IMG/VR virus record: IMGVR_UViG_3300025890_000031
Location: 1 to 57,276 of that record
Direction: 5' to 3' (one strand)
DNA: 57,276 nt
DNA from: a virus
Lineage: Duplodnaviria > Caudoviricetes
In this document: positions 4,588-20,501 of the stretch, one piece after another
Numbering within the stretch: the first letter of the stretch is position 1
Layout: every line of letters begins with the position of its first letter
Position numbers and translations under genes: made by a program
Notes under the pieces: model-generated
Database searches by the model: none
Told to the model about the DNA's origin: nothing
The model's input: the letters and a program-made list of their open reading frames with translations, nothing else

Positions 4588-6037
4588 CCTTAGCCTGTTC
4601 CTTTACTTGATTTACTGTTTCTTGTTGTTGTGCTAACTGAACAATTTTTTGGTAATCAATATCAGCAATACCAGTTGAATTATTTGGGTCTTGTGGTTGC
4701 AAATAATCTTCTTGGTCTTGCTTAGGCAAAGTAGCAATCTGACGTAAATATTCTTCAAGTTTTTGGTCAGGGAATATTTGCATACCAGACCCAGCAAGAG
4801 TTGATACGTATTGAGCCAATTCTTGTAGAGAAGGTGTTTCTAAGTCGCTATGTCTTAGTTTTGGTAACCTTGAAGTATCCATACCATTGATTTCAAATAA
4901 TTTTGGTATTGCATAGTCGTTAAAAACATTTGTAATATTATCTAAGTAACTTTCTAAAGCTACAGCAAATAGTCTAGTTTTATTACCAGCTAAAGAATAA
5001 GAGCCAGTTCCACCATGACCTAATAAAATAAAGTCGGCTAGTACTGTCATAGCTATTCGTTGTTCATATCTAGTTATAATACCTGTAGTATCAAACTGTC
5101 TACTTCCACCAGAGTTTAACAACTCAAATTCATATAATGGTTTTCCTGAAGAATCATAAACTCGTGGAAATATGATACCTTCTTGTGTATCTCTACGAAC
5201 ATTGACAATTAATTTTTTAATAGCTTCTAACATAGCTTGTTGGTCACTTGTAGCTCCAGCAGACATAATTGCAGGGTCTACATAAGCTATTGGAATACCA
5301 GCTAAATCTCTTTCTATACCAACACCTTCGATTTCTTCTATTCTTTTCTTAAAATACCAAGAGCGATATCCGTTTCTTAATATAGAACGACCTTCTGGAT
5401 TATTTTTATGTGTTTGTGTTCTAAACAATAAGCATTTTTCCATTGGTATAACAACTTGTTTGTAGGATGGTGGTGCTAACTGCATAAATCCTTTAATTCC
5501 ACCTTGTGGGTCAAAAATCCAATGGTCAATAGTATCTTGGGCACGCATAGGCATTTTTCTCCAACCTATTTTTCCATCATTAAACTTAGAACGCTGTTTT
5601 GCATCTTTGTTTTCTAATCCGCCACGCCTTTTGTAAACAATTTCGTGAACACTAAATCCATAAACTAACATTGACATAATTTCTGAAACAAACTCTAACC
5701 AAGTGTTAGACATGTCGTCCATACACTCTTGAACGAATTGAGCATCTTGAACGTCTTTTCTTTTAGCTGAATATGGTTCTACATCCCATTTAGTACTTCT
5801 GATAATTTGGTCTACTGCAAATAAAATAGCACCGATAATTGCATCATTATCTGCCATTTCACGATATGTCTTCATTCCCTTTCGACCTTGAAGGTCGTAC
5901 AGGAACTCTTCCATTACATATCCAGCTTGTCTGTTTAGACCAGACATACCAAACTCTGACATACCTACACTTTCGTTGATATTAGGTGAAGCACTTCCTA
6001 GTGCTTTTGATATGTCGTCAAAATCTTTTTCACTCAT
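4535..6037 (-). CDS. Portal protein (DUF935/Mu gp29-like)
   Basis: 500 aa; YGFSVHEIVY, NPEGRSILR and GIERDLAGIP motifs; followed by MuF. Confidence 0.85.
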   Translation of the reverse strand: MSEKDFDDISKALGSASPNINESVGMSEFGMSGLNRQAGYVMEEFLYDLQGRKGMKTYREMADNDAIIGAILFAVDQIIRSTKWDVEPYSAKRKDVQDAQFVQECMDDMSNTWLEFVSEIMSMLVYGFSVHEIVYKRRGGLENKDAKQRSKFNDGKIGWRKMPMRAQDTIDHWIFDPQGGIKGFMQLAPPSYKQVVIPMEKCLLFRTQTHKNNPEGRSILRNGYRSWYFKKRIEEIEGVGIERDLAGIPIAYVDPAIMSAGATSDQQAMLEAIKKLIVNVRRDTQEGIIFPRVYDSSGKPLYEFELLNSGGSRQFDTTGIITRYEQRIAMTVLADFILLGHGGTGSYSLAGNKTRLFAVALESYLDNITNVFNDYAIPKLFEINGMDTSRLPKLRHSDLETPSLQELAQYVSTLAGSGMQIFPDQKLEEYLRQIATLPKQDQEDYLQPQDPNNSTGIADIDYQKIVQLAQQQETVNQVKEQAKDAVRQQFNPKGDKPQGE

Positions 6038-6968
6038 TTTCAGGAAACCACATTTCTGCTTTGCTAAACAATTCTATTCTTTCGTCTTTACTTAAATCTG
6101 ATGGGTCATTACCCCAATCAGGTTTATACCTACCAACCATGATAGGTAAGTCTATCTTATCACATACACTAGCACTTGCTAATTTACCAGCCTTATCATT
6201 GTCAAAACATAGAGCAATATAGGCAGGGTTTAGACGATTTAAGAGGGTTTTTTGAAAATCGCTAAAATGTGAGCCTAAAATAGCTAAAGCAGGTATACCA
6301 ACTTCCCAAAAAGCCATTGCATCTAAAGCACCTTCGACTAAAGCTAATCCACCATCATAATTTAACTTTTTCATGTTCTCGTTTATAAGTTGTGACTTTT
6401 GATACTCATGCTGTCCAAATAAATATCCAGCTTTTTGAAAGCCTTTTGGATATAAATATCTAATATTTGCATCTGGGTCTAATCTTCTCTTAATCACACC
6501 AATAACTTTCCCATGAAAAGTTCGTAAAGGTATAGTTACTGAATTACTTAATGGGTCATAGCCTAAAGAAAACTTTTCAATAGTTTTATCAGTTAATCCT
6601 CTTTCAGACCAATAATCATGTGGATATTTATATTGTTCTAGCCATTTTTCATCATGATATGAAGTTTCTTTATCTTTTATTGGGTCTGAAACGTATTCAT
6701 CTAGTTCACGAATAATATTATCTATTGCATCTATTGGTATTTCTTGTAGATATGGATAATTTTTCTTTATTCCTAATCTTCTAAGTAATCCATTCCAATT
6801 ACCCTTTTCTTGACACCCATGACAAATCCATAATCCGTTTTCTTTGTTTACAGCAAAGCTAGGATTACTGTCTGAGTGAAAAGGACACCTACAATAGTAT
6901 TCTTCTTCCGATTCTGTTACAACATCTAAATGTTTTGAAACTATATCGGCACGATACTTATTGACCAC
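6030..6968 (-). CDS. dnaG: DNA primase (CHC2 zinc finger plus TOPRIM)
   Basis: CPFHSD..PSF..CHGC zinc finger; VEGALD and FDNDKAG TOPRIM motifs. Confidence 0.92.
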   Translation of the reverse strand: MVNKYRADIVSKHLDVVTESEEEYYCRCPFHSDSNPSFAVNKENGLWICHGCQEKGNWNGLLRRLGIKKNYPYLQEIPIDAIDNIIRELDEYVSDPIKDKETSYHDEKWLEQYKYPHDYWSERGLTDKTIEKFSLGYDPLSNSVTIPLRTFHGKVIGVIKRRLDPDANIRYLYPKGFQKAGYLFGQHEYQKSQLINENMKKLNYDGGLALVEGALDAMAFWEVGIPALAILGSHFSDFQKTLLNRLNPAYIALCFDNDKAGKLASASVCDKIDLPIMVGRYKPDWGNDPSDLSKDERIELFSKAEMWFPENE

Positions 6969-7302
6969 GGTTAATCAAATCAACAGCATACCTATCTGCT
7001 ATTACTGTTTGATATTCGCTATATTCAAAATGTTCCCCACCAGCATGTTCACCAGTAACTTTTATTTTCCAATGAGTTTCACCTTTGTTATCTACGATAT
7101 TATCTATTTTTTCAATAATAACGCCTTGCTTGAAATTTCCTTCTATAACCATTCCAACTTTTAAATCTGATGGCTTATATGCTTGTTTATTTCCTAAAGG
7201 TATAGTTCTGCCGTAGCTTAGATAATATCTAACACCTGTTTTTTTTGGCATTTTGCTCCCTTTCCTTTCTATTAGAACAAACTCCACTTGCTCTTCATTC
7301 AT
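6958..7302 (-). CDS. Hypothetical protein
   Basis: 114-aa ORF overlapping both neighbours in the operon. Confidence 0.65.
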   Translation of the reverse strand: MNEEQVEFVLIERKGSKMPKKTGVRYYLSYGRTIPLGNKQAYKPSDLKVGMVIEGNFKQGVIIEKIDNIVDNKGETHWKIKVTGEHAGGEHFEYSEYQTVIADRYAVDLINRGQ

Positions 7303-7477
7303 TATTTAATAATATTCTTCCACGAACACGAGGATATTTCGTCTTGTGGTGAATATAACAAAATTTTTGATTATTATACTTACTTAGCATTTGCTCACAC
7401 TTTTCAGATTCACAAATTCTATTTTCACCATAAGTTTTAGATTTTCTAGCCTTTGGTCTTTGTGTACCTTCAATCAT
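7295..7477 (-). CDS. Small Cys/His-containing hypothetical protein
   Basis: C-x4-C ... C-x2-H pattern; AAGGA RBS. Confidence 0.65.
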   Translation of the reverse strand: MIEGTQRPKARKSKTYGENRICESEKCEQMLSKYNNQKFCYIHHKTKYPRVRGRILLNNE

Positions 7478-7679
7478 ATTTTTCCTTTCTTCTTCGGTAG
7501 GGGGATTAGTTACTCTCTTACTTTATCTCGCTTTGAGCCCTACCTATCTTCTATAGTAATTTCACCATTTGAATTGTCAATGATTTGGTTAAACTTTTTT
7601 TCATACAATTTTTTGAGTAAGAAATCTGGGTCATCTTTAAGTTGCTTTGCTTTAAAAACAACCCATTGATATTCTTGCA

Positions 7680-8966
7680 TCAGTCGTAATCTAAATCGTC
7701 TTGGTCAGCTAATATCAAGTCTTGTGCAATATCCCCTGATATTTCTTCAAACGAACCATTCCCTGGTGTAAATTTACAAAACCAGTTTTTATTATCTTGT
7801 CCGTGTCGGAACTTAGCTAACTTGAATTTAACAACGTGGGGAGATTTCTGTACTAGCGTAACTACACAATCTGCATCCATACCTATGGCATCAGATTGAG
7901 ATAAGTGAATAACTGATGGTGGTTCATTACCACCACCCTCTCTATTCATTTGTGCAGCGGATATGATGGGTATGTCATATCTCTGAGCGATTGCCTTGAT
8001 ATCAGCACTTAACGAAGCAACTGCTCGCCAATCATCTCCCCCAGACTTTAGTAATGTTAAATAATCTATATAAACAACAGTAGGTTTGTGTTCTTGTATT
8101 CTACTAGCCACGACTGCTGGAGATACAGCACCACGACTACCATCAACAACAGTAAAACTACCTTTTATTTTTTTAGGTATGTCTTGTAAGAATTTTTTAT
8201 ATGCTCTGATATCAAAGTTTTCACCTTTCATCAAGTCTAAAGATTTAAAAGTTTCTTTTCCATATTCTGAAGAAAGAAAACTCTGTACCCTAAACCCAAT
8301 TTGTTTTGAAGGTTGTTCTAAAGATACAAAAAGAACTTTTTCTCCTGCTTGTAATGCTGAACAAGCCATACGGATTAAAGTCCATGTCTTACCTTGACCT
8401 AACCTAGCACCTACTACCCAGAAATCTCCACCTGATGCTCCACCAGTTAAATTATCTAAGCTGGGAAAACCTGTAGGTATTCCTGCTAAACCTCGTTTAT
8501 CTTTAGCTGCTATTCTTCTTTCAATATCTGCTAATAAATAATCTCCATCATCTAAAATATTTAAAGTACTAGAACCTGTAGTAACTTTTTTCTGAAGTAA
8601 TAAAATATCTTGATATAAAGAATCTAATAACTTTTCTCCTGTTTCTTTTTCTTTAATATCTTCAAAAGTATTCTTCATTACAGAACTTATTTTAGTTCTT
8701 ACATAGTTATCTTTTACTTCAGAACAAAAATGTTCTAAATCATCTACTTTATATAAAACTACTTCAGGAAAGTTAGTTTTAAAAGCATTAGTACTAGGTA
8801 AAGTTCTATGCTGTATAAAGTATTTTTCTATCCATGAATATTCTTCAGGATAAGATATAAAGTATTCTCTACTTATTCCTTGTTCAGCTATTACTGCGTA
8901 GTCTTTTCTACGAAGCAAAGCAGAAACAAGAAGTATCTCAGGATGTGCTGACATCTTCTGCTCCAA
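7680..8966 (-). CDS. dnaB: DnaB-like replicative helicase
   Basis: GIPTGF, Walker A GARLGQGKT, SLEQ, YIDYL, AAQMNR, AKFRHG. Confidence 0.93.
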   Translation of the reverse strand: MEQKMSAHPEILLVSALLRRKDYAVIAEQGISREYFISYPEEYSWIEKYFIQHRTLPSTNAFKTNFPEVVLYKVDDLEHFCSEVKDNYVRTKISSVMKNTFEDIKEKETGEKLLDSLYQDILLLQKKVTTGSSTLNILDDGDYLLADIERRIAAKDKRGLAGIPTGFPSLDNLTGGASGGDFWVVGARLGQGKTWTLIRMACSALQAGEKVLFVSLEQPSKQIGFRVQSFLSSEYGKETFKSLDLMKGENFDIRAYKKFLQDIPKKIKGSFTVVDGSRGAVSPAVVASRIQEHKPTVVYIDYLTLLKSGGDDWRAVASLSADIKAIAQRYDIPIISAAQMNREGGGNEPPSVIHLSQSDAIGMDADCVVTLVQKSPHVVKFKLAKFRHGQDNKNWFCKFTPGNGSFEEISGDIAQDLILADQDDLDYD

Positions 8967-9089
8967 TCATCTATTTATTTTATTGTCCACAAGCTCTTGT
9001 GATTTTTCTAATCTAATACATCTTAAATTTTATACAAACAATTTCTATATTTTTTTTTTCATAGTATGCTTTCTACTGAAGGAGAGAAT

Positions 9090-9281
9090 TTGGAAAAATA
9101 TAAAGACCTTTTAGAAAGAGTCGGATTTACATTTGCTGAAGCATTTATTGGTGCAGTAGCTGTAGCTCCACTCATTGACTTAAATGCCTCAACTTTACAG
9201 TTGGCAATTATAGCAGGTGCTTCTGCCGCTCTTGTAGTAGTAAAAGAATTTGTTAAGAAAAATATGCCAGCAAAAAGCTAA
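9090..9281 (+). CDS. Holin-like membrane protein (r1t-type)
   Basis: LERxxxTFAEAF start and two TM helices; probable TTG start at 9090 after GAAGGAG RBS. Confidence 0.65.
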   Translation: MEKYKDLLERVGFTFAEAFIGAVAVAPLIDLNASTLQLAIIAGASAALVVVKEFVKKNMPAKS

Positions 9282-9287
9282 AGGTTA

Positions 9288-9364
9288 GGGGTGGATAAGG
9301 TAAGACTTGTTTAGTGTTGCGGGACAGTAGATAAGTAACGAGGGTTCAACTCCCTCCCACTCCA
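9288..9364 (+). ncRNA. Mini-tmRNA-like RNA: tRNA-like domain only, no mRNA-like domain
   Basis: Acceptor stem GGGGTGG/CCACTCC with G3-U wobble and discriminator A; stemless D loop ATAAGGTAAGAC; 13-bp capped hairpin; T arm GAGGG-TTCAACT-CCCTC. Confidence 0.75.
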
Positions 9365-9369
9365 CAGAT

Positions 9370-9717
9370 ATGTACGAATACGAAGGAATAGTAGAAAGAG
9401 TAGTTGACGGTGATACCGTTGACTGTTTATTGGATTTAGGTTTTAACACTTGGAAGAAATCTCGTGTTAGATTAGCAGGTATAGATGCTCCAGAATCCAG
9501 AACAAGAGATTTAGTTGAAAAAGCAAAAGGGTTAGAAGCTAAGAAGTGGCTCATTGACACGATACAAGAAAACAACAACAGGGTTGTGGTCAAATCGTTA
9601 GGAGTTGGTAAGTACGGAAGGTGTTTAGGCATCATCCTACTTCCAACTATGAATGTCAACGACAAAATGGTTGAGTTAGGATATGCAGTAGCTTATGATG
9701 GGAAATCCGCTAGATAA
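9370..9717 (+). CDS. Thermonuclease (SNase-like nuclease)
   Basis: VVDGDT, RLAGIDAPE, KYGR and MVELGYA motifs. Confidence 0.92.
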   Translation: MYEYEGIVERVVDGDTVDCLLDLGFNTWKKSRVRLAGIDAPESRTRDLVEKAKGLEAKKWLIDTIQENNNRVVVKSLGVGKYGRCLGIILLPTMNVNDKMVELGYAVAYDGKSAR

Positions 9718-9889
9718 CGACAAAGAACTACAAGCAGCAGTAGAAAGAACGGTTGCTAGTTTAGAACAACTTCTATCAATGATAGATGATTACTCAAACG
9801 ATAGATATTATCGTTGTTTTACATGTAGAAGAAAACTTTCTCAGCATCCTGGGAAGGTCTTTTGTTTAGAACGAGTGCAGTTCGATTAA
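9695..9889 (+). CDS. Hypothetical protein with CxxC/H/C motif
   Basis: 64-aa ORF overlapping the nuclease stop. Confidence 0.55.
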   Translation: MMGNPLDNDKELQAAVERTVASLEQLLSMIDDYSNDRYYRCFTCRRKLSQHPGKVFCLERVQFD

Positions 9890-10095
9890 GCTCTTAAAAA
9901 ATTTCCCAAAATTTTCATGGGGAATTGTGCCACTAAGGTAAATCATCTTCTGTTAGACGCCAAATAAGACCTTCTGGGGTGCTTTTAAGGGCTTGTTTAA
10001 TACTTTTGTGTGTATATCGATAGACGGCAGGGGCAGGCGTTTTTAAAAAAAAAATTTCACGATTTTTACTCGATAGCCTCGCAAAGCTCGGCAGT

Positions 10096-10218
10096 TTAAT
10101 CCCAATCTTCATCATAGTCGTATTCTATGACTTCAAAGTTCGGTTGTGATAATGTTTTAATAAGCGTTAGTACTTCTTTGATGAAGTAACCAAATAAAAA
10201 CCCTACTAAATAATCCAT
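10096..10218 (-). CDS. Small membrane peptide (40 aa, acidic tail)
   Basis: Manual translation MDYLVGFLFGYFIKEVLTLIKTLSQPNFEVIEYDYDEDWD; AAGGT RBS. Confidence 0.55.
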   Translation of the reverse strand: MDYLVGFLFGYFIKEVLTLIKTLSQPNFEVIEYDYDEDWD

Positions 10219-10241
10219 AATACCTTTAAATATAACAATAT

Positions 10242-10351
10242 AAAAGGAAAAGTCCACTTAGTGCATATTCACTTGCGTGAACATTCGTTGCATCCAAGTA
10301 GACTTGACCTAACACACGTAAACAACACAATATAGGAATATATAAAATGTT
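10242..10351 (-). ncRNA. Candidate small structured RNA or leader with terminator-like hairpin
   Basis: Hairpin at 10251-10304 (11-bp stem with 2 G-U on the minus strand, GCAA tetraloop), U-rich tail, promoter at 10358-10386. Confidence 0.5.
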
Positions 10352-10357
10352 ACTTAC

Positions 10358-10386
10358 ATGATATAGGAATTTTTAAAAGCTGTCAA
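10358..10386 (-). promoter_or_regulatory. Sigma70-type promoter TTGACA-N17-TATCAT
   Basis: Exact -35 box, 17-bp spacer, 5/6 match to the -10 box. Confidence 0.7.
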
Positions 10387-10388
10387 AT

Positions 10389-10477
10389 AGATTTTGGGGA
10401 TTTTTCGGTCTTTAGCTTGTTACCTATGGACGATTGAGCATCTCAGTTATCAGTGACTGAAGAAACCCCCCAAATCT
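10389..10477 (-). ncRNA. Candidate ~90-nt stem-loop RNA
   Basis: ~22-nt imperfect terminal stem beginning just downstream of the promoter at 10485-10512. Confidence 0.45.
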
Positions 10478-10484
10478 TTTATTA

Positions 10485-10512
10485 ATTATAGACTATTCTT
10501 CCTCTTGTGCAA
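10485..10512 (-). promoter_or_regulatory. Promoter TTGCAC-N16-TATAAT
   Basis: Same architecture as the promoter at 20509-20536. Confidence 0.55.
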
Positions 10513-10754
10513 CATTTTTTGTCTGTAGTTTTCTCCCAAATTTCTTATTGTATTGTGTACAGCCAAGATTTTTACAATATCTATAGCCTTTGATATTTTT
10601 ATATTTTCTATTGCAATTTTTGCAATTTTCTATTTTTTTCATGCTCTCTATTCATCGACTTCTAAAAATTTTCTCTATGTAAAAAATCACCGACCCACAG
10701 ATTTGTGGAAAAATCGTAATTTTTGGTGGGGTGGGGTGAAATATTTAAAATTGT

Positions 10755-10787
10755 AGTACTCCTCTCCTTATTGCAAAGGGTTGCAAA
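10755..10787 (+). repeat. Boundary element copy 1: AGTACTC-N5-CTTATTGC-N6-TTGCAAA
   Basis: Same blocks and spacing as 18082-18114. Confidence 0.65.
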
Positions 10788-11087
10788 TGGGTTTTAACTA
10801 TCGTGTATGAATGTACGCTCTCTCTATCAATCTCTAAGCTCCAGCGACCAATGTCCATTAAACTTTAAGCTCTCATTACCAGACTTAGCAAGTGATAACT
10901 CGTGATGTAGGTAGGCTTTTGTGCTCTTATTTGAGTTATACGCTACCTGCAAGGGTGGGGGTTGTTGAATTGAGAACATTGGATTAGGTTTTTCTGTCTG
11001 GTTAAATATTAAATCTTTTAGCTCTACATTTTCTCCTGCTATTAGTCCCAGAGTGAATGCTGTCTGTATATTCATAATGCTCTCATT

Positions 11088-11525
11088 CTAGTCTTTAACT
11101 ATTTCTCCATCAATTTCATCTCGTATAGCTGATAAGTACTCATCTTTAGTCCCATCAACAATCATAACACCCTGCGTTATTGTTTGATTAATTTCACTCT
11201 TACGAGGGCTATCTAGTCCATACATTTTGCTTATTCTATCCATAATGCTCAACGCTCTATCAATAGCACCAAGCTCCCCCTGTTGCACTCTCTCCCAAAG
11301 GATAAGTAACATCTGGTTAAGTCGTTCATATTCAACTGTACGGAGTTCATCTGTTGGCTCGGCTATGATTGATTTCATACTACGTTGTATAGACTTATAT
11401 GCTCCAGAACTATCGGCATACCCTAACTGCTTTGCTATGACCTCATAACTCGCACCTGCTTTCCTAAGCTCTAATGCCTGTCTATCTTTCTCCCTGACCT
11501 CAATGGATTTATTATTTACTTTCAT
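11088..11525 (-). CDS. terS: Terminase small subunit (HTH)
   Basis: ALELRKAGASYEVIAKQLGY HTH followed by helical region ending RISKMYGLD, an actinophage TerS-like pattern. Confidence 0.7.
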   Translation of the reverse strand: MKVNNKSIEVREKDRQALELRKAGASYEVIAKQLGYADSSGAYKSIQRSMKSIIAEPTDELRTVEYERLNQMLLILWERVQQGELGAIDRALSIMDRISKMYGLDSPRKSEINQTITQGVMIVDGTKDEYLSAIRDEIDGEIVKD

Positions 11526-11552
11526 GTACTCACTTTACCATACCCAAAAACT

Positions 11553-11679
11553 TAACTGTATGCAACGCCAAACCCAAGCTATCTTGATTATCCCATAGAG
11601 AGCCTTATTTATTGACTTGTTCGCCAATACTTAGGTAGCCTTTTTTGAGTACTTCATTGTTTGCCCCTGCATACAGTTA
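11553..11679 (-). ncRNA. Candidate structured RNA in the terS leader
   Basis: Perfect 12-bp closing stem TAACTGTATGCA/TGCATACAGTTA with nested G-U-containing helices. Confidence 0.5.
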
Positions 11680-12340
11680 CTAAAAGTACTCGCTACTAAC
11701 CTTATAAATACTACCTCTTTCCTATGAGTGCTTTATTTGACTTCTCTCCGTGCTACTTTATGCTTTGACTTCTAAAATAACTTATAAATGAGTGCTAAGT
11801 CCATACTAATGTTCTGGATAACATCAACCCAATTTTTTTGATTTTTTTTCTTTTTTGTGGGGATTTCTGTAAACTTTTCCCCTCATGTTTTAAATGCACT
11901 CAAATATGTGGCTATCGGCATGGATTGGTATTCTGTATTACCCCTGTGACTTAAAACATATCTTATGAGCTCTTTTTGATTTATTTGCATACTTCGACTT
12001 TTTTCAATTCCCTACTATTTTTTATTTATTTTTGAAAAACTCTTGTTGGTCGTATAAGCTGAAAAGAGTGCACCTAACCCCAAATACTGTCAGCTATAGC
12101 TTGTGAAATAAATCACAAAGATATAGTCTAAGCTACGTACTCATAGGTTTTTTGCTCAAAAATGGCTTATTTCTCCATGAATAATATACATGAAAAATGT
12201 ATAATTATACATGATTTAGGGAGTACATAGGTCTATAAGCCTATGAAATAAGGCTTAAAATAGCCCTTATTTTATGGGGTTTTATGGACGAGTACTAAAA
12301 AAAAACTTTTAAAATAGGCTACCTAAAACAATTACCTACA

Positions 12341-12346
12341 TATAAT
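12341..12346 (+). promoter_or_regulatory. Candidate -10 box (TATAAT) of the early operon; a second TATAAT at 12200-12205
   Basis: Perfect -10 hexamers in an AT-rich gap upstream of the plus-strand operon; -35 not clear. Confidence 0.4.
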
Positions 12347-12375
12347 TGTATTAGATATCTATATATCTAAATTCT

Positions 12376-12862
12376 CTTGGATTATGAGGACAATAGGTGG
12401 TAATTAGTCTACAGTCGCTGTCGGAGGACGGAATGGAACTGACTTTTAGCCTAAGTGAAAAATCTCCCAAGAGGACACACAGAGCTTGTGTATTCAAGCT
12501 GACTAGAGGTCAAACGCCTTCTCTTGCGACCTTACTGTCAGATGAGTACATAAGTTATGCCTTCGGTCAAGAGGGCTTAGTCTGTTGTGTTGGTGGTTGA
12601 TTTTATCACAACCATACGACTTGCAGAGTACATCTCAGCATAGCGTGTTGCACCAAGCCTGTTGGAGGGCGATACTTCAGTTCAAGAAGTAAAAACTACC
12701 AAGCTAGGTAGAGGACTAATGCTATATGTGTTAGAAATTGTCTGTGCGTTGGCGTGTAAGGAGGTCTTATTGCAAGTAATCTCCTGTGTAGCCAAATAGT
12801 TTGTGCAAGAGTACCATAATCATATAGAAGTTGTCTTTTCTTAATAACCAAGTTGCTACTTA
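12376..12862 (+). ncRNA. Candidate large (~480 nt) multi-stem non-coding RNA
   Basis: About 45% GC versus about 32% for the genome, no convincing ORF, closing stem 12376-12394/12830-12852 and at least 7 internal hairpins with G-U pairs. Confidence 0.65.
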
Positions 12863-12930
12863 ATAGAGTACGCCTAGTGGATATTCATACGTTACATTTC
12901 GTAGTGTACTCCAGAGAGTGAGAATACATT

Positions 12931-13221
12931 ATGAATAGATTAACAAATATAGAAATGCAGGAAATAGTTGAACAGTATGGTGAGGTCACATTCACTAGAA
13001 AACAACTAAAAGTAATTCGTGCATTATTAAACGCTACAACCAAAAAATTAGTTAACGAGTACGACAACAAGAATAGTAAATCTTTTCAAGTTGCTCTAAG
13101 CTCTTTATCTAAATTTAACTTTGATTTTGCTGACTACTGTCAAGAGGTCAATGACAACTTCAAAAGAGAAGTTTGGTTTGATGCTAACAACCTAACACGC
13201 AACGCTAGGCGTATATGGTAA
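12931..13221 (+). CDS. Hypothetical early protein
   Basis: 96-aa ORF with a purine-rich leader. Confidence 0.7.
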   Translation: MNRLTNIEMQEIVEQYGEVTFTRKQLKVIRALLNATTKKLVNEYDNKNSKSFQVALSSLSKFNFDFADYCQEVNDNFKREVWFDANNLTRNARRIW

Positions 13222-13376
13222 GAGTACTTAAATCAAAGTATTGGTGGTATTATGGCTTATTGTTTACAAAAATAAACAATATTCATTGTAGAGTACACTA
13301 CAAGACATGGCTCAAAATGTATGACTTTTATTCTTATAAAATTGAAAAAGGACTATCTATGTGGGAGGACTGCTAA
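13215..13376 (+). CDS. Small hypothetical protein (53 aa, aromatic-rich)
   Basis: Manual translation MVRVLKSKYWWYYG...MWEDC; overlaps both neighbours. Confidence 0.5.
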   Translation: MVRVLKSKYWWYYGLLFTKINNIHCRVHYKTWLKMYDFYSYKIEKGLSMWEDC

Positions 13377-13528
13377 TGATGGTTGACACTAGAATAAAAT
13401 GTCTATGTGGAGAACACATGGCTAAAATAAGCGTAATGGCTAACGTAAAAAGTACAACATTAGTACAATTTTTATGTTTCCATTGTGGTGCGAGTACAAT
13501 CGCCAAAGAACAAAGTAAAAGAATATAG
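13376..13528 (+). CDS. Small zinc-ribbon protein (50 aa)
   Basis: Manual translation shows CLCG...CFHCG; GGAGG RBS; TAATG coupling. Confidence 0.65.
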   Translation: MMVDTRIKCLCGEHMAKISVMANVKSTTLVQFLCFHCGASTIAKEQSKRI

Positions 13529-13620
13529 GAATATATTGGAGTACACTACGAAGTGTATAGTATGAAATATAAATTCAGTTATCTACGATAGGTCTGTGTC
13601 CTCGGAAAAGGAATAATAAA

Positions 13621-14514
13621 ATGAGTAAGAACACTCTAGCAGAGAACATCTCTGCATTAATACCTAACAAATCGCTTGAAAATTATGTCAAGAGAATTGT
13701 TGACGGAGGTCAAAACGACCTAGAACTACTAGATTACGCACACAAAAGCAGACACAATGTCCTCATTTCTGGGGATACAGGTGTTGGAAAAACTCATTGT
13801 GTTTCGGCACATGCAGAGAACATTCAATTACCCTTTGTATCTATTGCTTGTAATGGTGCGACTAACCCAGACCAAATGTTCGGTATGTTTATGCCGAGTA
13901 CAGAGGGAAAAGGTTTTGAATGGACAGATGGTGTCGTGACCTCATTGGTTAGACATGGTGGCGTTCTTTTGCTTGATGAAGTGAACTTTATGAAAGCAGA
14001 TATTGCCGCTGCCCTCCACCCATTACTAGATAGTCGTAGAACACTAACCTTAGTTGAAAATGGGGGAGAGGTCATCAAAGCTCATAAGGATTTTCAAGTT
14101 GTTGCTTGTATAAATCCTAACTATGAGGGCACAAGACCATTAAACGAAGCCTTTAAAAATCGTTTTGCCTTACAGGTAGAATTTGATTATGAAGGTAACT
14201 CAGAGGACATTTTGATTGATGGTAGACCAAGTTTACTTGAATTAGCCGATAGGTTAAGAGAAAGTAGAGAAAATGGAACTATCACAACACCTGTGAGTAC
14301 AAACGCTTTAATGGAATTTTGTGAGTTTGTTGAGGACTTGGGAATAGAGTTTGCTATAAGCAACTTTGTTAACAGATTTGAAATAGATGAACGAAGTGCA
14401 ATCAAAGAGTACTTTGATGTATTAATTCCTCAAATAGCAAGTGAATTTGGAACTGATGTTCCTGAACTCTTTGTTGTTGAACAACCAGATGAGGAAACTG
14501 ATACAGATGAATAG
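13621..14514 (+). CDS. MoxR-family AAA+ ATPase (CbbQ/NorQ/CobS-like)
   Basis: Walker A GDTGVGKT, Walker B LLLDEVN, NPNYEG, and AFKNRF Arg finger. Confidence 0.92.
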   Translation: MSKNTLAENISALIPNKSLENYVKRIVDGGQNDLELLDYAHKSRHNVLISGDTGVGKTHCVSAHAENIQLPFVSIACNGATNPDQMFGMFMPSTEGKGFEWTDGVVTSLVRHGGVLLLDEVNFMKADIAAALHPLLDSRRTLTLVENGGEVIKAHKDFQVVACINPNYEGTRPLNEAFKNRFALQVEFDYEGNSEDILIDGRPSLLELADRLRESRENGTITTPVSTNALMEFCEFVEDLGIEFAISNFVNRFEIDERSAIKEYFDVLIPQIASEFGTDVPELFVVEQPDEETDTDE

Positions 14515-16483
14515 TCATGGCGAGGACAATCTAAGTTTAGATGAAGTCCAAAAAATTCTCAATATGCACGAGGACAACGAAGATAGAGTTTTCGGAGATA
14601 TTGAAATGCAAGAACGACATGAGGACGTACAACGAGAAAGCAGTCGTATGAAAGCGATTGGTAATGCCTTTGCGAGTACATTTACTAAAGTAAATCGTAT
14701 TCTATCAGGTCAAAACGAAATCAATGTACTTATGACAGAGGACAATGCAGGTGTTGACGCACCTGCTTGGACTGATGGAGAACACGTTTATTTGAATAAG
14801 GCTTATGTGAATAAATCTTTTTCTAGTATTTTTAATAATGCTAAAATTGATTTTTCACAAATAGCTGAGGTCAAAGGCTTGAACTACCATGAGTTAGCTC
14901 ATATATTCTATACCCCACGAATGAGTGATAAAATCACTAAGCTCGTGAGGGCAAAAGCCGATTTAGATAATGATTGGTGGTATGCGTACAATGTACTAGA
15001 GGATATGAGGGCAGAAAGCTCTATCATTCATGTTTATTCTAAAATGATTGACTATTTCACTTATACAGTTATTAAGTACATATTGAATAATGAGGACAAC
15101 GAAAATGACACTTCGTATTTTCTTTTAAGTGGTAGATTTTTTCTACCTATTGAAATGAGAAATATGATGAGGTCATTATTCGCTCAAAAATATGGTACTA
15201 AATTCACTAAGAATATGGATAGCATTGTTAAGAAATATGTGGCTGAGGTCACATATACTTCTGCAAGGTATCAAGAGGGCTATGATTTGATTGAACGATT
15301 TGTGCTTGAAGTAATCAAGCCAATGAGGGCAAAAAGTGGTCAAGCCTTACCTAAGTGTATCGGTGGTAGTAGCCACCAACAACACCACCATGCAGGAGCT
15401 AAACGAGGAGGACATTGGAATAGCCGAAATGAAATGGGCAATATGTGGAAAGGAAAAACACAAGTTGCAGACCAAAAAGAGGTCAAACCATTCATTGAGG
15501 AACTAATTGATGAAGTTGAGAGTTTAGAAAAACAGGCAGGAAAACTTGGTGCTAAAGCAAGTAAGGGGAGTACTGATAATTTAAGTGCTAGTGAAGTTAA
15601 TGTTGAATTAGAAAAAATCTTAGAGATTGTGGAAAAGAGTCCACAATTTAAGAGTGATGTTAAAATTACTCAAAAAGATATTAGTCATAAAATAGAAACA
15701 GCTATAGAGGACAGTTATATTAAAGGTCTTGAAGTAGCTCCTAGTTTATTGACACCTAGTCAGAGTACATTAGCTACAAAAATACGTTTAAGGCGTTATT
15801 TTAGACAATTAAGAATGGACTTAGAGCAGGATTGGTTGACAGAAAAGAGGTCAGGCAAGGTTGATTTAAGTCGTTTTATGTCTACAGAACATTTAGGAAA
15901 AACCGACATTTTTAAACGTTGGAAACCTAATGACGAGGACGTAGCTAGTGCTGAATGTGTAATTCTTGTTGATATGTCTGGTAGTATGTCAGGCGTTATG
16001 GACTCTGTTAGTCAAATAGCTTGGCTATTAAAGAGTGAGTTAGACAATATAAATGTGAGGACTTCAGTTCTTGGATTTGCTAATAATTGTTATAAACTAT
16101 ATACACCAAACCAAAAAGCCGACAGAGGTCAATACTCTGCTTGGGCTAGTGGTGGGGGTACACAACCAATTTACACATTAAAACAAGCTAATAAAATATT
16201 GACTAAAACCGATAGAAAAAATAAGGTAGTTATTGCCCTCACTGATGGTGCATGGACTAACCATGATGATGAAATCGAGGAGGTCAAGAACTTGACTAAA
16301 AATTGTGATAGCTCAAACTTGCTATTCTTTGGCTCTTTTTACTCTTTTGAGGACAGAGGCAAAGATGAGAAAGTGAGTTTTTCACATTTTGATAATCTTA
16401 TTAAAATTAATAAGATTGAGGACACAGTAAAAGTAGCTAAACAATTAGTTGCCGATATTGTAAATAAAGTAATAAACCAATAA
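14507..16483 (+). CDS. Metallopeptidase-like plus vWA domain protein (CobT-like MoxR partner)
   Basis: HELAH...NVLEDMR zincin motif; MIDAS DMSGSM...T...LTDG; ATG at 14507 preferred over the track start at 14441. Confidence 0.88.
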   Translation: MNSHGEDNLSLDEVQKILNMHEDNEDRVFGDIEMQERHEDVQRESSRMKAIGNAFASTFTKVNRILSGQNEINVLMTEDNAGVDAPAWTDGEHVYLNKAYVNKSFSSIFNNAKIDFSQIAEVKGLNYHELAHIFYTPRMSDKITKLVRAKADLDNDWWYAYNVLEDMRAESSIIHVYSKMIDYFTYTVIKYILNNEDNENDTSYFLLSGRFFLPIEMRNMMRSLFAQKYGTKFTKNMDSIVKKYVAEVTYTSARYQEGYDLIERFVLEVIKPMRAKSGQALPKCIGGSSHQQHHHAGAKRGGHWNSRNEMGNMWKGKTQVADQKEVKPFIEELIDEVESLEKQAGKLGAKASKGSTDNLSASEVNVELEKILEIVEKSPQFKSDVKITQKDISHKIETAIEDSYIKGLEVAPSLLTPSQSTLATKIRLRRYFRQLRMDLEQDWLTEKRSGKVDLSRFMSTEHLGKTDIFKRWKPNDEDVASAECVILVDMSGSMSGVMDSVSQIAWLLKSELDNINVRTSVLGFANNCYKLYTPNQKADRGQYSAWASGGGTQPIYTLKQANKILTKTDRKNKVVIALTDGAWTNHDDEIEEVKNLTKNCDSSNLLFFGSFYSFEDRGKDEKVSFSHFDNLIKINKIEDTVKVAKQLVADIVNKVINQ

Positions 16484-16556
16484 CACATTAGAGGGCATTA
16501 GACCTATCGTAGATAACTGAATATCTTAACTACTCTTTATAGAAATGGAGGACTGC

Positions 16557-16721
16557 ATGAATTTGCAACCTATGTTTTTCAAAGATTGCCCTAACTGTAA
16601 CATGAGTACAGTATGGACAGCTTTGGAACAAGTTAATGAACTCGAACAACGTGTAGAATGTGATGAATGTCAAACGACAGAAATCATGCCTAGAGTTGCA
16701 GAGGACTTAGTCAATGGTTGA
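16557..16721 (+). CDS. Small zinc-ribbon protein (54 aa)
   Basis: Manual translation shows CPNC...CDEC; GGAGG RBS. Confidence 0.7.
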   Translation: MNLQPMFFKDCPNCNMSTVWTALEQVNELEQRVECDECQTTEIMPRVAEDLVNG

Positions 16722-17100
16722 TGATATTAAAAACATTTTAATTTCACTTAACCAAATAAGATTAAGTCGTATGAGTTTAGATGACCAAGAGAGTACTTTA
16801 AAACAACGATTACTAGATTATTTTAAATCTAGTGATATGGCTAAATTCAATGTATCACATGAGGGCAAGAATATACGTGCTACCCAAGTGAACAATGATA
16901 GAGTTATTATTGATGAGTTAGGACTTATAGAGAACATATCTCCAGAACAATATGATAAAATCATAAAAAAATCTGTTGATAGAAAACTCTTAGAAATAGC
17001 CATTAGTAATGGGGATATTAGCGAGGACTTAGCTAAACAGTTTATTAAAGTACAAGCAGGAAAAAAATACATTAAACTTAATGTTGAGGAGGACAAGTAA
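16714..17100 (+). CDS. Hypothetical protein
   Basis: 128 aa, GAGG RBS, coupled to neighbours. Confidence 0.7.
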   Translation: MVDDIKNILISLNQIRLSRMSLDDQESTLKQRLLDYFKSSDMAKFNVSHEGKNIRATQVNNDRVIIDELGLIENISPEQYDKIIKKSVDRKLLEIAISNGDISEDLAKQFIKVQAGKKYIKLNVEEDK

Positions 17101-17399
17101 TGGTACAACCACCAAATACTAGCCCCTCAGCATTGAGGACTTATGTTAATAGTAAGACAAGAAATAAAATGTATTTACCAAGTGACCTAGCGAGGTCATT
17201 AGGTGTGTCTGTTAAAACAGTACGCAGGTGGATTAAGGAGAGCAAAATATTACCTAGTGTTCATTTAGAACAAGGAAAAAACCTTATACCCCTATGGACT
17301 GCCGAGGACATAATCTATGTACAGAATTGGTATCTAAAGAAAAGTAAAGGAAAACAACCCAAATATAGAGAGGAGGTCAGTACTGATGATAACATTTAG
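17100..17399 (+). CDS. MerR/excisionase-like HTH DNA-binding protein
   Basis: SDLARSLGVSVKTVRRW HTH. Confidence 0.8.
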   Translation: MVQPPNTSPSALRTYVNSKTRNKMYLPSDLARSLGVSVKTVRRWIKESKILPSVHLEQGKNLIPLWTAEDIIYVQNWYLKKSKGKQPKYREEVSTDDNI

Positions 17400-17589
17400 T
17401 AGTGGCTTACATTTCGGCATTATTGTAACTATGATTTCTGTAGTTATGTTTTTAGCATACGAGGTCTTTAATGTACTTCGTTTGTCTTATGCCGAATATA
17501 AATATAATAAAGAAAAACCTATTGAAGTAGACTTCTCCACGAGGTCTGGTAGAGAAAAGTTTTTCAATGAAACTTACAAAAAATGGTAA
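17386..17589 (+). CDS. Small membrane protein
   Basis: N-terminal TM helix; GGAGG RBS. Confidence 0.65.
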   Translation: MITFSSGLHFGIIVTMISVVMFLAYEVFNVLRLSYAEYKYNKEKPIEVDFSTRSGREKFFNETYKKW

Positions 17590-17798
17590 AAACATCTAGC
17601 TTAGACGAGGGCGATACTGTTGAACATTCGCTTACAGTTGAAACGAATGTTTTAGGCAATAAGATATGGCTTAAAACAGGAGCAACAACTAAGGTGAGGA
17701 CAGGGGAAACCCCAAGTGGTGCTAGTAAAAGATTAGCCAACTTTGTGAGTAGGAGAACATCTCAGCAATTACAAGAGTTGAGAAAAACAAGCGAGTAG
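17583..17798 (+). CDS. Hypothetical protein
   Basis: 71 aa, last gene before the terminator. Confidence 0.6.
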   Translation: MVKTSSLDEGDTVEHSLTVETNVLGNKIWLKTGATTKVRTGETPSGASKRLANFVSRRTSQQLQELRKTSE

Positions 17799-17820
17799 TT
17801 GAGTACGTATTTCATACAAT

Positions 17821-17869
17821 GGGATAGCAATTTTATTAATTTAAAATTTGCTATCCCCACTTTTTTTTT
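17821..17869 (+). terminator. Intrinsic terminator of the early operon
   Basis: GGGATAGCAA/TTGCTATCCC stem followed by T9. Confidence 0.8.
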
Positions 17870-18081
17870 GCTCTCTTTTTCACTTTCTTCTATCGCTGCT
17901 ATTTTTTATTATTGCTTTTTTTTTGCTCTCTTTTAGAAGCAAAATGGCTGGGGGTTCAGGTAAAAAAAAAGTACTCGTCACCATCATGGGCATCTGGATT
18001 GTTATAAAATGCACTCATATTTTTGGTGATTTCGTCAGGAGCATCTGCACTCTTTTAAATATTCTTCTTCCTTCGCTGCAC

Positions 18082-18114
18082 AGTACTCTAAAACTTATTG
18101 CGAACCCTTGCAAA
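18082..18114 (+). repeat. Boundary element copy 2: AGTACTC-N5-CTTATTGC-N6-TTGCAAA
   Basis: Matches 10755-10787, 7327 bp away. Confidence 0.65.
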
Positions 18115-18271
18115 AATAATTTGTACTCAAAAATGAGAAAAAAAAAGTTTTGTCCTCTTTTTCTACGGATATGTCTTCTAGGGACTTTTCAAAATGCACT
18201 CGGAAATTCAAAAACTTTACAATTCAGGTTGAAGGTGATTTATGTTTTACGAAAGTAGAGTGCTAAATTTA

Positions 18272-19657
18272 TTAAACAGACCAGGGACTTTTCTGTCTTA
18301 CAAAATCAATTAATGGTGCGATTGCTTCAAACTTATATCCACGTTCAGCCCAAGCTAAAGCCATAGCTACCATACTGTCAGGTGTATGACCATTTCCATA
18401 TATATCATCAAAACCTGCGTATTTGTGGTCTTGATACATACTTTCTACCATAGGACTTTGAATTAACCCACGCTCACAAGCAGATATATATTCAGAAAAT
18501 AAATTCTTTTTATTACTACCAGTAATTACATAAGGTATTGAATCTATTTCTATGTAATCTTCTACAACATTACCTATACCAGTAGCGTCATGTACTAGCT
18601 TACCAGGGTATTTCGCCACTCTATCCTGTGCTTTTTTAACCATATCTCCCCATGCTTCTCTGTGTGTTCTTTCAAAAGCAACTACACGCCATGGTTCTAC
18701 GTCAGTTCTAAGGGTTGCTATTACTGTGTAATCTCGTTGCTTAGCCCAGTCAATGCCAGTAATGTATACCCCCTCCCCATTGTATTTTTCAAATAAATAT
18801 TCTTTACCTACTTCTCCAGATACTTTTGGATGAGTGCTTAATGAAAACATTTCATCGACTTTAGCTGCGTCTATAGCTCTACCTTCAAAAGAAGGTTCTT
18901 GCATATCAAATTCTATATCCCACATAGCTTGTGAAACTTCACTTCTTTTTCTTTCTACTTCTGAAACTGGTAGCCAGCCATGTGGTTGTACTGTTTCTCT
19001 CCAACACCATTCATAAACAGGATATCCTTTTTCTTTAGCTCTTTTAAGCATTTCTGTCATAGTTTTATCTGGATACTGGTGTGTAGAAGAAGCTACAGTT
19101 TGTGTTTGAATGCCATTTTTAGACATAGGTTGCCCCTGTGCTGCCTCTAAAATCTCTAATTCCATTTCGTCTATCTCATCAAGCCTTAGTCTTTGTGGAT
19201 GTTGACCACGAACAGACCTTTGTGAAGCCGTTAAAGCTCTAATCCAAGCTCCTGTAGTTAAGTTTGTTGAATATTTATTAGGTTGGTCGACTAAAAGACC
19301 TGTAGGTGCGTTCTTATGTGCCCATGCTTCTAAAGATATTTCATAAACACGAAGTGATTGTGCTGCTGAACCACCTAAAACTGTTACTTGTGCCCCTAGT
19401 GTTACTGCTTCAGTTAAAGCTAGTAGCCCTAATGTATTAGTTTTTCCTCCCATACCACGACTAGCCTTCCAAATAGAAAAAGGTGACCTTGCAAAATAAG
19501 CATCAGCAAAAGCATCAAATGGAGATTGGTGGTGTGGACAAATAGGTGTTCTAGGTATTGATATTCCCCATAATAAACGAACTACTTCCCATAATTCATC
19601 ATTATCTTGTGGTGGTCTACCTAATATTAATTGTTTTTTTGCTTCGGTTTTTTCCAT
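18272..19657 (-). CDS. terL: Terminase large subunit
   Basis: Walker A SRGMGGKT, Walker B LRLDEID, nuclease GIDWA...D, DATGIG, PDSMVA. Confidence 0.9.
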   Translation of the reverse strand: MEKTEAKKQLILGRPPQDNDELWEVVRLLWGISIPRTPICPHHQSPFDAFADAYFARSPFSIWKASRGMGGKTNTLGLLALTEAVTLGAQVTVLGGSAAQSLRVYEISLEAWAHKNAPTGLLVDQPNKYSTNLTTGAWIRALTASQRSVRGQHPQRLRLDEIDEMELEILEAAQGQPMSKNGIQTQTVASSTHQYPDKTMTEMLKRAKEKGYPVYEWCWRETVQPHGWLPVSEVERKRSEVSQAMWDIEFDMQEPSFEGRAIDAAKVDEMFSLSTHPKVSGEVGKEYLFEKYNGEGVYITGIDWAKQRDYTVIATLRTDVEPWRVVAFERTHREAWGDMVKKAQDRVAKYPGKLVHDATGIGNVVEDYIEIDSIPYVITGSNKKNLFSEYISACERGLIQSPMVESMYQDHKYAGFDDIYGNGHTPDSMVAMALAWAERGYKFEAIAPLIDFVRQKSPWSV

Positions 19658-19673
19658 ATTATGGTTATGATTA

Positions 19674-19740
19674 TACCATAGGTAACTTCATTAGTGTAGT
19701 GGAGGTACACAGGAAACACATGAAGTTACCTTGAATGGTA
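19674..19740. promoter_or_regulatory. Intergenic branched stem-loop between divergent terL and JAB genes
   Basis: Perfect 12-bp AGGTAACTTCAT/ATGAAGTTACCT, outer TACCAT/ATGGTA, inner GTGTA/TACAC. Confidence 0.6.
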
Positions 19741-19768
19741 CTATTATTGTAGCAAATAAAAAAAGGAG

Positions 19769-20186: not shown

Positions 20187-20501
20187 TTAACCTCTAGTTG
20201 TTCGTTTAGGTGTTCCAGTTTTAGGAGTTTTGAAACTTCTAGCAGCACCAGCTACAGCTTGGTTACCACTTCTAGCATTAACTTTATTCGCTCTTAAAAG
20301 GTTTCTAGCTGCTGTATTTTTCTTACGCGGGTTAGCGTTAACAGTTGCTTGTGCCCTTTTAATTTTTGAATAGTTTTTTGCTCTTGCAGAACCAGCTTTG
20401 AAAGGGTTTTTACCACCTTTTCTACCAGCTGCTCTTTGCCTTGCTGAACGAGTTTGACCTGAGCCAGAACCTGCACCTTGAATTATAATTATATTTTCCA
20501 T
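20187..20501 (-). CDS. Very basic small protein (R/K/A/G-rich, almost no acidic residues)
   Basis: Amino-acid composition; own promoter at 20509-20536. Confidence 0.7.
   Translation of the reverse strand: MENIIIIQGAGSGSGQTRSARQRAAGRKGGKNPFKAGSARAKNYSKIKRAQATVNANPRKKNTAARNLLRANKVNARSGNQAVAGAARSFKTPKTGTPKRTTRG

Follow-up and report, generated by a model that had tools for sequence, protein, structure and literature searches.

What is served by a block of viral DNA in which one short degenerate word recurs every 60 bp or so, written largely through genes, and is kept sparse in the rest of the chromosome? This question is raised by the window, a 57,276-bp single contig (IMG/VR record IMGVR_UViG_3300025890_000031; Duplodnaviria, Caudoviricetes) that is the whole genome of the record and is referred to here as W. 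The word is GAGNNC, and the block, which we call the lattice zone, extends over 7.6 kb next to the gene for the large terminase (TerL). The original prediction, made from the sequence, described about 120 sites at roughly 60-bp spacing, few sites elsewhere and sharp borders, and read them as a lattice for a protein or a modification. Its counts reproduce: 80 forward and 9 reverse sites in the core at the positions that it listed, 23 sites in the left flank and 10 in the right, giving 122 sites with a mean spacing of 62.9 bp. The zone carries 13–18 sites per kb, while most other 1-kb bins carry 0 or 1, and about 25 sites are spread over the remaining 49.6 kb (0.46 per kb). The borders are as sharp as described, with the final zone site at 18258, just ahead of the TerL stop at 18272, and GC content stays level through the zone. 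The whole of W has 98 copies on the plus strand and 50 on the minus strand. The evidence set out below tips slightly towards a protein-binding lattice that is read on duplex DNA by a factor specific to this phage lineage.

The sites are spaced very evenly. The inter-site distance in the zone has a standard deviation of 19.0 bp, a coefficient of variation (CV) of 0.30 and a range of 27–113 bp. Uniform random placement (n = 20,000) gave no CV below 0.73 and no maximum gap below 172 bp, and placement with a 27-bp exclusion (n = 20,000) gave no CV below 0.41 and no maximum gap below 130 bp. Because the observed CV and maximum gap lie below those of both placement models, the array is more regular than steric exclusion alone would yield, and the under-dispersion that the original prediction anticipated is borne out. 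Spacing is 46–49 bp where coding constraint is weak or absent, as against 66 bp within genes. A helical phasing test gave spectral peaks near 10–11 bp that are weak and inconsistent, and we claim no phasing. The word can be refined to GAG[G/T][A/G/T]C[A/T], with information content limited to 6–7 bp; no hairpins or composition signal were found flanking the sites. Four forms, GAGTAC, GAGGAC, GAGGTC and GAGGGC, make up 91 of the 123 oriented zone sites and none of the 25 sites outside.

The enrichment survives shuffling of synonymous codons (300 shuffles per gene set), one of the checks proposed with the original prediction. Specifically, zone genes carry 75 sense copies of GAGNNC, compared with 25.8 ± 3.8 in the shuffles (maximum 38), an enrichment of about 3-fold. 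Genes outside the zone carry 13 sense copies, compared with 52.3 ± 6.0 (minimum 37), and 7 antisense copies, compared with 40.2 ± 5.1 (minimum 28), a depletion of 4–6-fold. The word is enriched within the zone and truly avoided on both strands elsewhere. Plain avoidance of a restriction site, which would deplete the word genome-wide, does not describe this pattern, since the word is enriched and even inside the zone. The sites occupy all three codon frames.

The orientation of the sites indicates the level at which they are read. The 9 reverse sites of the core occupy gaps of 97–172 bp between forward sites (median forward gap 69 bp), and none of 20,000 random placements of reverse sites gave a combined CV as low as that observed, in W and likewise in the relative L002 (this and all other comparators, L001–L004 among them, are metagenomic contigs). 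In a second relative, L003, the core holds just two reverse sites and gap filling has a P value of 0.06. Because reverse copies fill gaps, they count as sites, which speaks against a reader acting at the RNA level or on one strand. The signal is read on duplex DNA and is not due to ribosome-binding sites or codon bias, as the original prediction held; the avoidance of the word on both strands outside the zone agrees.

The core nevertheless has a strong polarity, with sense and reverse sites in ratios of 80:9 in W, 86:10 in L002 and 92:2 in L003. This bias of about 10:1 is not forced by coding: the protein sequences would permit 133 sense and 118 antisense placements, and 69 and 7 of them, respectively, are used. 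In the flank beside TerL the ratio of forward to reverse sites is 1:9 in W, 1:8 in L003 and 5:10, a weaker reversal, in L002. Core and flank therefore point towards each other in each of the three genomes examined, and in each of them the left 1.6 kb is of mixed orientation.

Relatives were found with TerL, AAA ATPase, DnaB and helix-turn-helix (HTH) queries, which retrieved 80 loci in metagenome contigs and 10 in genome contigs (TerL profile), 34 loci (DnaB), 7 loci (AAA ATPase) and 5 loci (HTH profile). An unbiased search for localised, under-dispersed gapped words detected a lattice in 7 of 48 loci of at least 5 kb, and in 2 of 3 and 6 of 33 loci in two other scans. Every one of these belongs to a small marine clade of viral contigs, with GC of 34–36% and TerL at least 88% identical, that shares the zone at about 70% nucleotide identity; six further close-relative loci extend less than 1.4 kb to the zone side of DnaB and are too short to show it. 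No lattice was found in the more distant relatives (TerL 38–60%, DnaB 42–51% and AAA 41% identical), and no third type of motif occurred among the loci scanned. A search of viral contigs with the VWA protein of the zone returned no relatives, and the VWA query from L003 matched only its own contig.

Within the clade, the lattice is conserved beyond its surroundings. Alignment of W with L002 shows 60 of 90 forward sites in the same column (46 identical, 14 with altered NN) at about 65–70% nucleotide identity, and motif columns are 0.71–0.81 identical, compared with 0.52–0.69 in the flanks. The other 30 sites are lost, though the total in L002 exceeds that in W. The alignment indicates that selection acts on the lattice while individual sites turn over.

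In L003 (also retrieved as L092), which is syntenic and has a TerL 88% identical to that of W, there is no GAGNNC zone. An unbiased comparison of k-mers revealed instead GCGTAC (25 copies), GCGGAC (23), GCGTTC (21) and GCGGTC (21) in its zone and no copy of any of the four outside. The L003 lattice comprises 125 GCGNNC sites over 2928–10398, with a mean spacing of 60 bp and a CV of 0.32, and only 2 sites lie outside it, so the architecture matches that of W with one letter of the word exchanged. The latter half of the word, [G/T][A/T/G]C[A/T], is common to W and L003. As few as 18 of the 122 sites of W coincide in the alignment with a site of L003, and the lattice must thus have been largely re-laid between the two. 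The avoidance differs as well. GAGNNC occurs in L003 at 2.39 per kb outside its zone and 1.9 per kb inside, with 13 copies outside compared with 17.3 expected from 3-mer counts, whereas genomes of the GAG type carry 0.46–0.94 per kb outside their zones. Because the avoidance follows the lattice word, a single reader would account for both lattice and avoidance. The switch suggests that reader and word co-evolve, and the relatives support a lattice of the kind that the original prediction described, with sites under selection in L002 and an equivalent zone with a different word in L003. Proteins of the zone diverge far faster between W and L003 than their neighbours do (VWA 37% and AAA 58% identical, compared with 88% for TerL and 92% for SNase).

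For the reader, the original prediction had suggested, among others, an HTH protein encoded at 17100, the small terminase (TerS) and ParB-DUF4417. The first of these, a 99-aa MerR-like protein encoded within the zone, is the best candidate, and we put its binding to the lattice at slightly less than even odds; the two others were rejected. The HTH of the 145-aa protein, which is probably TerS, does not differ between phages of the GAG and GCG types, and ParB-DUF4417 belongs to a large and widespread family (947 hits). The 99-aa protein falls into only 7 clusters in 5.8 billion proteins and has no tblastn match in the non-lattice loci, and is therefore as clade-restricted as the lattice itself; a variant of it, P0126, is 67% identical. 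It matches Pfam MerR with an E-value of 1.8e-6 (28.1 bits, cut-off 28.2) and HTH_17 with an E-value of 2.3e-5 (25.0 bits, cut-off 27), and profile searches match it to the RacA DNA-binding domain (E-value 0.014), lambda Xis (0.18–0.32) and BldC (0.58). In an AlphaFold model (mean predicted local distance difference test score, pLDDT, 69.8; core 73–84), the protein is predicted to adopt a winged-helix fold of the RacA/BldC/Xis class. The best Foldseek match of the model is the RacA–DNA complex (probability 1.00, target-normalised template-modelling score 0.67), followed by TerS DNA-binding domains, MerR regulators, BldC, Pukovnik Xis and gpNu1.

The alignment of the candidate with RacA places invariant residues at the predicted DNA interface. 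According to the available part of the RacA report, residues K15 and R19 contact bases (PMC4914108), and these align with the invariant K39 and R43 of the 99-aa protein. Position 42, on the same helix face between K39 and R43, is R in all rows of the alignment (A7, 8 rows, two of them redundant) except the GCG-type rows, and is K in both of these (P0125 and the L003 fragment), the recognition helix being otherwise invariant. All full-length rows share one C-terminal tail, GKQPKYREEV(S/R)TDD(N/S)I, apart from two substitutions in the GCG-type protein, and we take this tail to be a partner-binding peptide.

The zone is also set apart by the restriction-like words that it lacks. Across W as a whole, GATC, GGCC, GCGC and GAGAC are absent and CCGG and CGCG occur once each; in the genes outside the zone, the counts compared with shuffles are 0 and 88.8 for GATC, 0 and 27.7 for GAGAC and 0 and 10.9 for GGCC. 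ACGT is absent from L003 and present 66 times in W. These absences suggest host- or strain-specific restriction pressure on these phages. In L003, the GCG lattice brings 5 copies of GCGC and 16 of CGCG into the zone (2925–10400), while the rest of that genome has none or one; because these words are forced into the zone, the lattice overrides their avoidance.

Three further words are avoided in the zone specifically. Zone genes contain GAAGA once, compared with 14.0 ± 3.2 in shuffles (minimum 6 of 300), and contain no GAWTC (5.9 ± 2.1, minimum 1) and no CCAGT (5.3, minimum 1). Outside the zone, GAAGA (199, compared with 190.8) and CCAGT (67, compared with 71.1) are not clearly avoided, and GAWTC is slightly low (64, compared with 81.4, shuffle minimum 68). 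By position, a single GAAGA lies within 10497–17886 and no CCAGT in 8443–18519, and none of the five genomes compared, L003 included, has a GAWTC in its zone. An apparent avoidance of CAGCAG in the zone was dropped as not significant once amino-acid content was kept (0, compared with 1.7). The first-step-transfer (FST) DNA of phage T5 has a comparable domain-specific lack of restriction sites. The pattern suggests that the zone faces host restriction differently from the remaining genome, as would DNA that meets restriction enzymes before the rest is protected.

This avoidance lends indirect support to the view, part of the original prediction, that the zone is early, first-injected DNA. The companion suggestion that the zone is terminally repeated runs, weakly, against the assembled contigs: in 4 runs their depth is flat over the zone, and records that span 17027–19754 and 16563–19296 cross its right border.

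The features of the zone and its borders are collected in the table. Most genes of W are on the minus strand, including those for capsid, tail, PolIII alpha, RecA, WhiB, ParB-DUF4417, TerL, DnaB, DnaG and portal. In the core, a non-coding leader is followed on the plus strand by small open reading frames (ORFs), AAA_5, VWA, a Zn-ribbon protein, a 128-aa protein, the 99-aa HTH protein and two small ORFs. The host is probably a low-GC marine actinobacterium, judging from the gene for WhiB and from the marine origin of the runs. The 145-aa protein is probably the small terminase, because its gene sits upstream of TerL on the same strand in non-lattice relatives. Homologues of AAA, VWA, TerL and the 145-aa HTH protein are all present in relatives without a lattice. 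Searches of PDB sequences with the ParB-DUF4417, VWA and 145-aa proteins were uninformative.

Table. Coordinates of the lattice zone and of associated features in the window (strand given where assigned)
Feature	Position	Strand	Remarks
Whole lattice zone	10643..18263		122 distinct GAGNNC sites, ~16 per kb
Left lattice part	10643..12142		23 sites of mixed orientation; two minus-strand genes and divergent intergenic region
Core lattice	12221..17806	+	80 forward, 9 reverse sites; sole long plus-strand gene block
TerL-side flank	17870..18263	-	Non-coding; 9 reversed sites at ~43-46 bp spacing and forward site 18258; converges on core
Palindrome ATGTATAATTATACAT	12197..12212		Perfect, 16 bp; extended -10-like TGTATAAT on both strands
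Putative structured RNA leader or non-coding RNA, ~550 nt	12360..12930	+	Non-coding; sites denser, ~49 bp
Putative terminator of plus block	17821..17869	+	Hairpin then T-run, where site orientation flips
Candidate reader, 99-aa MerR-like winged-helix protein	17100..17399	+	Invariant C-terminal tail
145-aa HTH protein	11088..11525	-	Putative small terminase
AAA_5 (MoxR/CobS-like) ATPase and VWA (CobT-like) protein	13621..16483	+	Carry much of the lattice
Small clade-specific Zn-ribbon protein	16545-16721	+	
Small clade-specific Zn-ribbon protein	10493-10642	-	
Large terminase gene (TerL)	18272..19657	-	Bounds zone; single GAGNNC (18832)
GAWTC-free interval	9493..18540		Coincides with zone; median GAWTC gap elsewhere 332

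Two elements delimit the core. The palindrome, from which the uniform forward run starts, is kept in L001, L002, L003 and L004 and is likely a divergent promoter or operator, as judged from its sequence. At the other end, the hairpin is likely a terminator from our reading of the sequence; a simple terminator scan did not list it, and the promoter and terminator scan did not exceed shuffled expectation. The ORF at 17848–18258 has no relative in L002 or L003. Between the two, the 12360–12930 stretch is the most conserved of the zone (9–20% mismatch to L002), without codon periodicity and with indels that are not in threes. RNAalifold predicts 179 pairs, 17 of them with compensatory changes, from 4 sequences only, and in L003 only the first ~110 positions of the leader (promoter palindrome and first hairpin) are recognisable. 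On this prediction the stretch is probably a structured RNA leader or non-coding RNA. Rfam has no family in the window, nor in 12100–13000 at E-values up to 1.

Three other observations concern the neighbourhood. One of the Zn-ribbon proteins is acidic (isoelectric point 4.1) and has a weak match to the Lar restriction-alleviation family (E-value 0.04), and the other is basic (9.8). A 104-aa protein encoded at 20187–20501 on the minus strand (isoelectric point 12.0) is of low complexity, rich in R, K, A and G (25 K+R, 1 D+E) and protamine- or histone-tail-like; it has no family match and is 38% identical in L003. The intergenic region at 11830–11970 is T-rich and strain-variable, and contigs of several runs break or carry indels there (loose ends at 11834 and 11855; a 115-bp skip).

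We propose that the zone would act in cis, its roughly 120 short asymmetric sites forming an array to which a phage-encoded protein binds on duplex DNA. The reader would most likely be the 99-aa protein, which may multimerise along the DNA and coat it, and keeping the word out of the other 50 kb would confine the coat to this block. A domain-wide coat fits best because the sites are read on duplex DNA, the coverage is even and the word is excluded elsewhere. The block itself would be a divergently transcribed module of early type that is exposed to the host first, and the coat may shut it off or insulate it as one unit, the array being a very dense, zone-limited analogue of the stoperators of actinophages. 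Shut-off or insulation is favoured because the polarity of the core recalls stoperators, and by analogy with RacA, compaction or anchoring would come as a close second. Silencing in particular we regard as a rather doubtful outcome of the coat. A switch of motif would alter which relatives a resident phage can silence, possibly an exclusion or immunity code. Sequence alone cannot separate a protective coat, a ratchet and silencing.

Several points weigh against this proposal. A few roadblocks suffice for silencing, and 120 even sites look like a means of covering the DNA itself; the strong avoidance of isolated sites outside suggests an effect of each single site, which fits an enzyme at least equally. 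Orientation follows transcription in the core, yet the left 1.6 kb is mixed, and the 145-aa gene of L003 has 2 sense and 5 antisense sites. As for the candidate reader, its restriction to the clade is shared by the two Zn-ribbon proteins and by several small ORFs, its MerR score is 0.1 bit under the cut-off, the pLDDT of its model is only 69.8 and the Foldseek E-values are weak (8.6e-3). Furthermore, R42K is a single correlation, alongside 25% overall divergence of the GCG-type protein, and L003, a partial contig, is the lone GCG-type contig compared; the 60,223-bp contig carrying P0004 is a full GCG-type genome.

Known systems share parts of this arrangement. The stoperators of Cluster A mycobacteriophages, bound by repressors of the L5 gp71 type, are likewise many copies of an asymmetric site. 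Their orientation is linked to transcription (available part of PMC9283540), which the lattice sites match in the core but not in the left 1.6 kb or in the 145-aa gene of L003. They are read by a phage protein of evolving specificity in an actinobacterial host (available parts of PMC9283540 and PMC6550527), as the lattice probably is. Stoperators differ in being 13-mers, slightly more than 20 per genome, at promoters and short intergenic spaces genome-wide, whereas the word in W is of 6–7 bp and its roughly 120 copies are evenly spaced at 60 bp, mostly intragenic and confined to 7.6 kb; the original prediction drew the same distinction, and it holds. Pfam and PHROG scans named no two-domain repressor like gp71, although no search was targeted at one. 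Gp36 of phage D29, BldC and lambda Xis belong to the same fold class as the candidate reader. The accessible text of PMC12266134 describes Gp36 as a repressor of downstream genes that binds to direct repeats rich in GC, and BldC, in the accessible text on it, binds direct repeats as multimers. These three differ from the present case in using 2–4 adjacent repeats about 10–20 bp apart at few loci, with no 7.6-kb lattice.

The RacA–ram centromere of Bacillus subtilis is comparable in that no protein matches the candidate reader better in structure than RacA. The available part of PMC4914108 describes RacA as coating, compacting and anchoring DNA from GC-rich sites clustered in one chromosomal domain. 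From the same partial account, it differs in having 25 palindromic 14-bp sites over 612 kb and a long coiled coil that binds DivIVA, and in being a host chromosome system. The FST DNA of T5 is, from its annotation, an early-gene block of about 8–10 kb with special status, resembling the zone in this and in its lack of restriction sites; it differs in being a terminal repeat without an evenly spaced motif, whereas contig depth is flat in W, and our search of the T5 FST region found no lattice. Short words also mark a DNA domain or, by polarity, a direction in matS, Noc/SlmA sites, KOPS and Chi. All of these are orders of magnitude sparser and unevenly spaced, and KOPS and Chi are read strand-specifically, whereas in W the reverse copies fill gaps. 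A blastn search against the INPHARED phage collection returned no match, and a literature search found no paper describing a comparable lattice, the term GAGNNC itself giving only unrelated work.

The strongest competitor to a protein coat is an enzymatic mark, which we consider unlikely. A restriction–modification-like enzyme of phage or host would nick or modify one strand at each site, and co-orientation would keep the marks of the core on one strand. Type IIS, III and ISP sites are bare degenerate short words, and so is the present 6–7-mer, which has neither flanking structure nor a composition signal; the strong avoidance of single sites on both strands outside the zone, the extreme restriction pressure evident from GATC and GAGAC and the site-specific single-strand interruptions of T5 (from its annotation) all suit such an enzyme. 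It does not predict even spacing, however, and reverse copies would mark the other strand. Pfam and PHROG scans recognised no methyltransferase, nicking enzyme or restriction-type nuclease, with many ORFs unannotated, and the self-methylation mark raised by the original prediction finds no support in these scans.

A host or injected protein might instead bind the sites on the first-entering DNA, rectifying its diffusion as a ratchet or shielding it, with the motif tracking the host protein. This reading, only marginally less likely than the enzyme, would suit the zone-specific avoidance of GAAGA, GAWTC and CCAGT. It would work with either site orientation, and even spacing, which minimises the sum of squared gaps, would be the optimum for a Brownian ratchet. 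The flat contig depth and the contigs that bridge the right border tell against it, as does the T5 FST region, itself without such a lattice, and it leaves both the avoidance elsewhere and the orientation bias unexplained.

It is improbable that the zone is a packaging signal, that is, a giant pac region that adjoins the terminase genes, is read by the small terminase and sets the direction of packaging. The location between TerL and the probable TerS would suit this, as would the resemblance of the 99-aa protein to TerS and gpNu1 DNA-binding domains (7lw0, 1j9i; PHROG TerS match with an E-value of 5.6e-5) and its invariant tail, as for a partner-binding peptide. The HTH of the probable TerS (145 aa) is, however, identical in GAG and GCG types, so its DNA-binding surface does not track the site. 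To our knowledge, described pac sites are hundreds of bases long, whereas the zone covers 7.6 kb.

More improbable still are polar, Chi-like signals that would guide a translocase or exonuclease and meet at an end of the genome near 17.83 kb. The convergence of core and TerL-side flank in W, L003 and L002 is what such signals would show, but contigs bridge 17.83 kb, a strand-specific reader would ignore the reverse copies that fill gaps, and neither even spacing nor avoidance elsewhere is predicted. A signal read on RNA, or an artefact of composition or codon use, for which the mostly sense core sites and the putative structured leader within the zone might speak, is largely refuted by the synonymous shuffles and the gap filling of reverse sites, by antisense avoidance as strong as sense, by sites in all frames and unshifted GC content, and by the GCG variant, which rules out a Shine–Dalgarno-like reading.

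Returning to the lattice read on duplex DNA by a lineage-specific factor, the observations point to a DNA-reading protein that co-evolves with its word and is of a kind so far undescribed. On a more speculative view, to which we give limited credence, the array would define a phage chromatin domain: a self-encoded reader and about 120 sites would label the early, first-exposed DNA as a physically distinct unit to be coated, compacted or anchored, the word would be kept out of the remaining DNA, and reader and word would drift together as an exclusion code among co-infecting relatives. Such a code would be the lytic-phage counterpart of immunity groups. If a small winged-helix protein and its lattice do mark out a genome domain, a virus would have a new means of dividing its chromosome in time or space, and the pair would be a clean natural case in which a DNA word and the protein that reads it co-evolve over about 120 sites within coding sequence. 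The lattice is a tractable case for how far coding DNA can bear a second, positional code. Together with the zone-specific avoidance of restriction sites, it may reveal staged entry or early exposure of DNA in phages of abundant uncultured marine bacteria.

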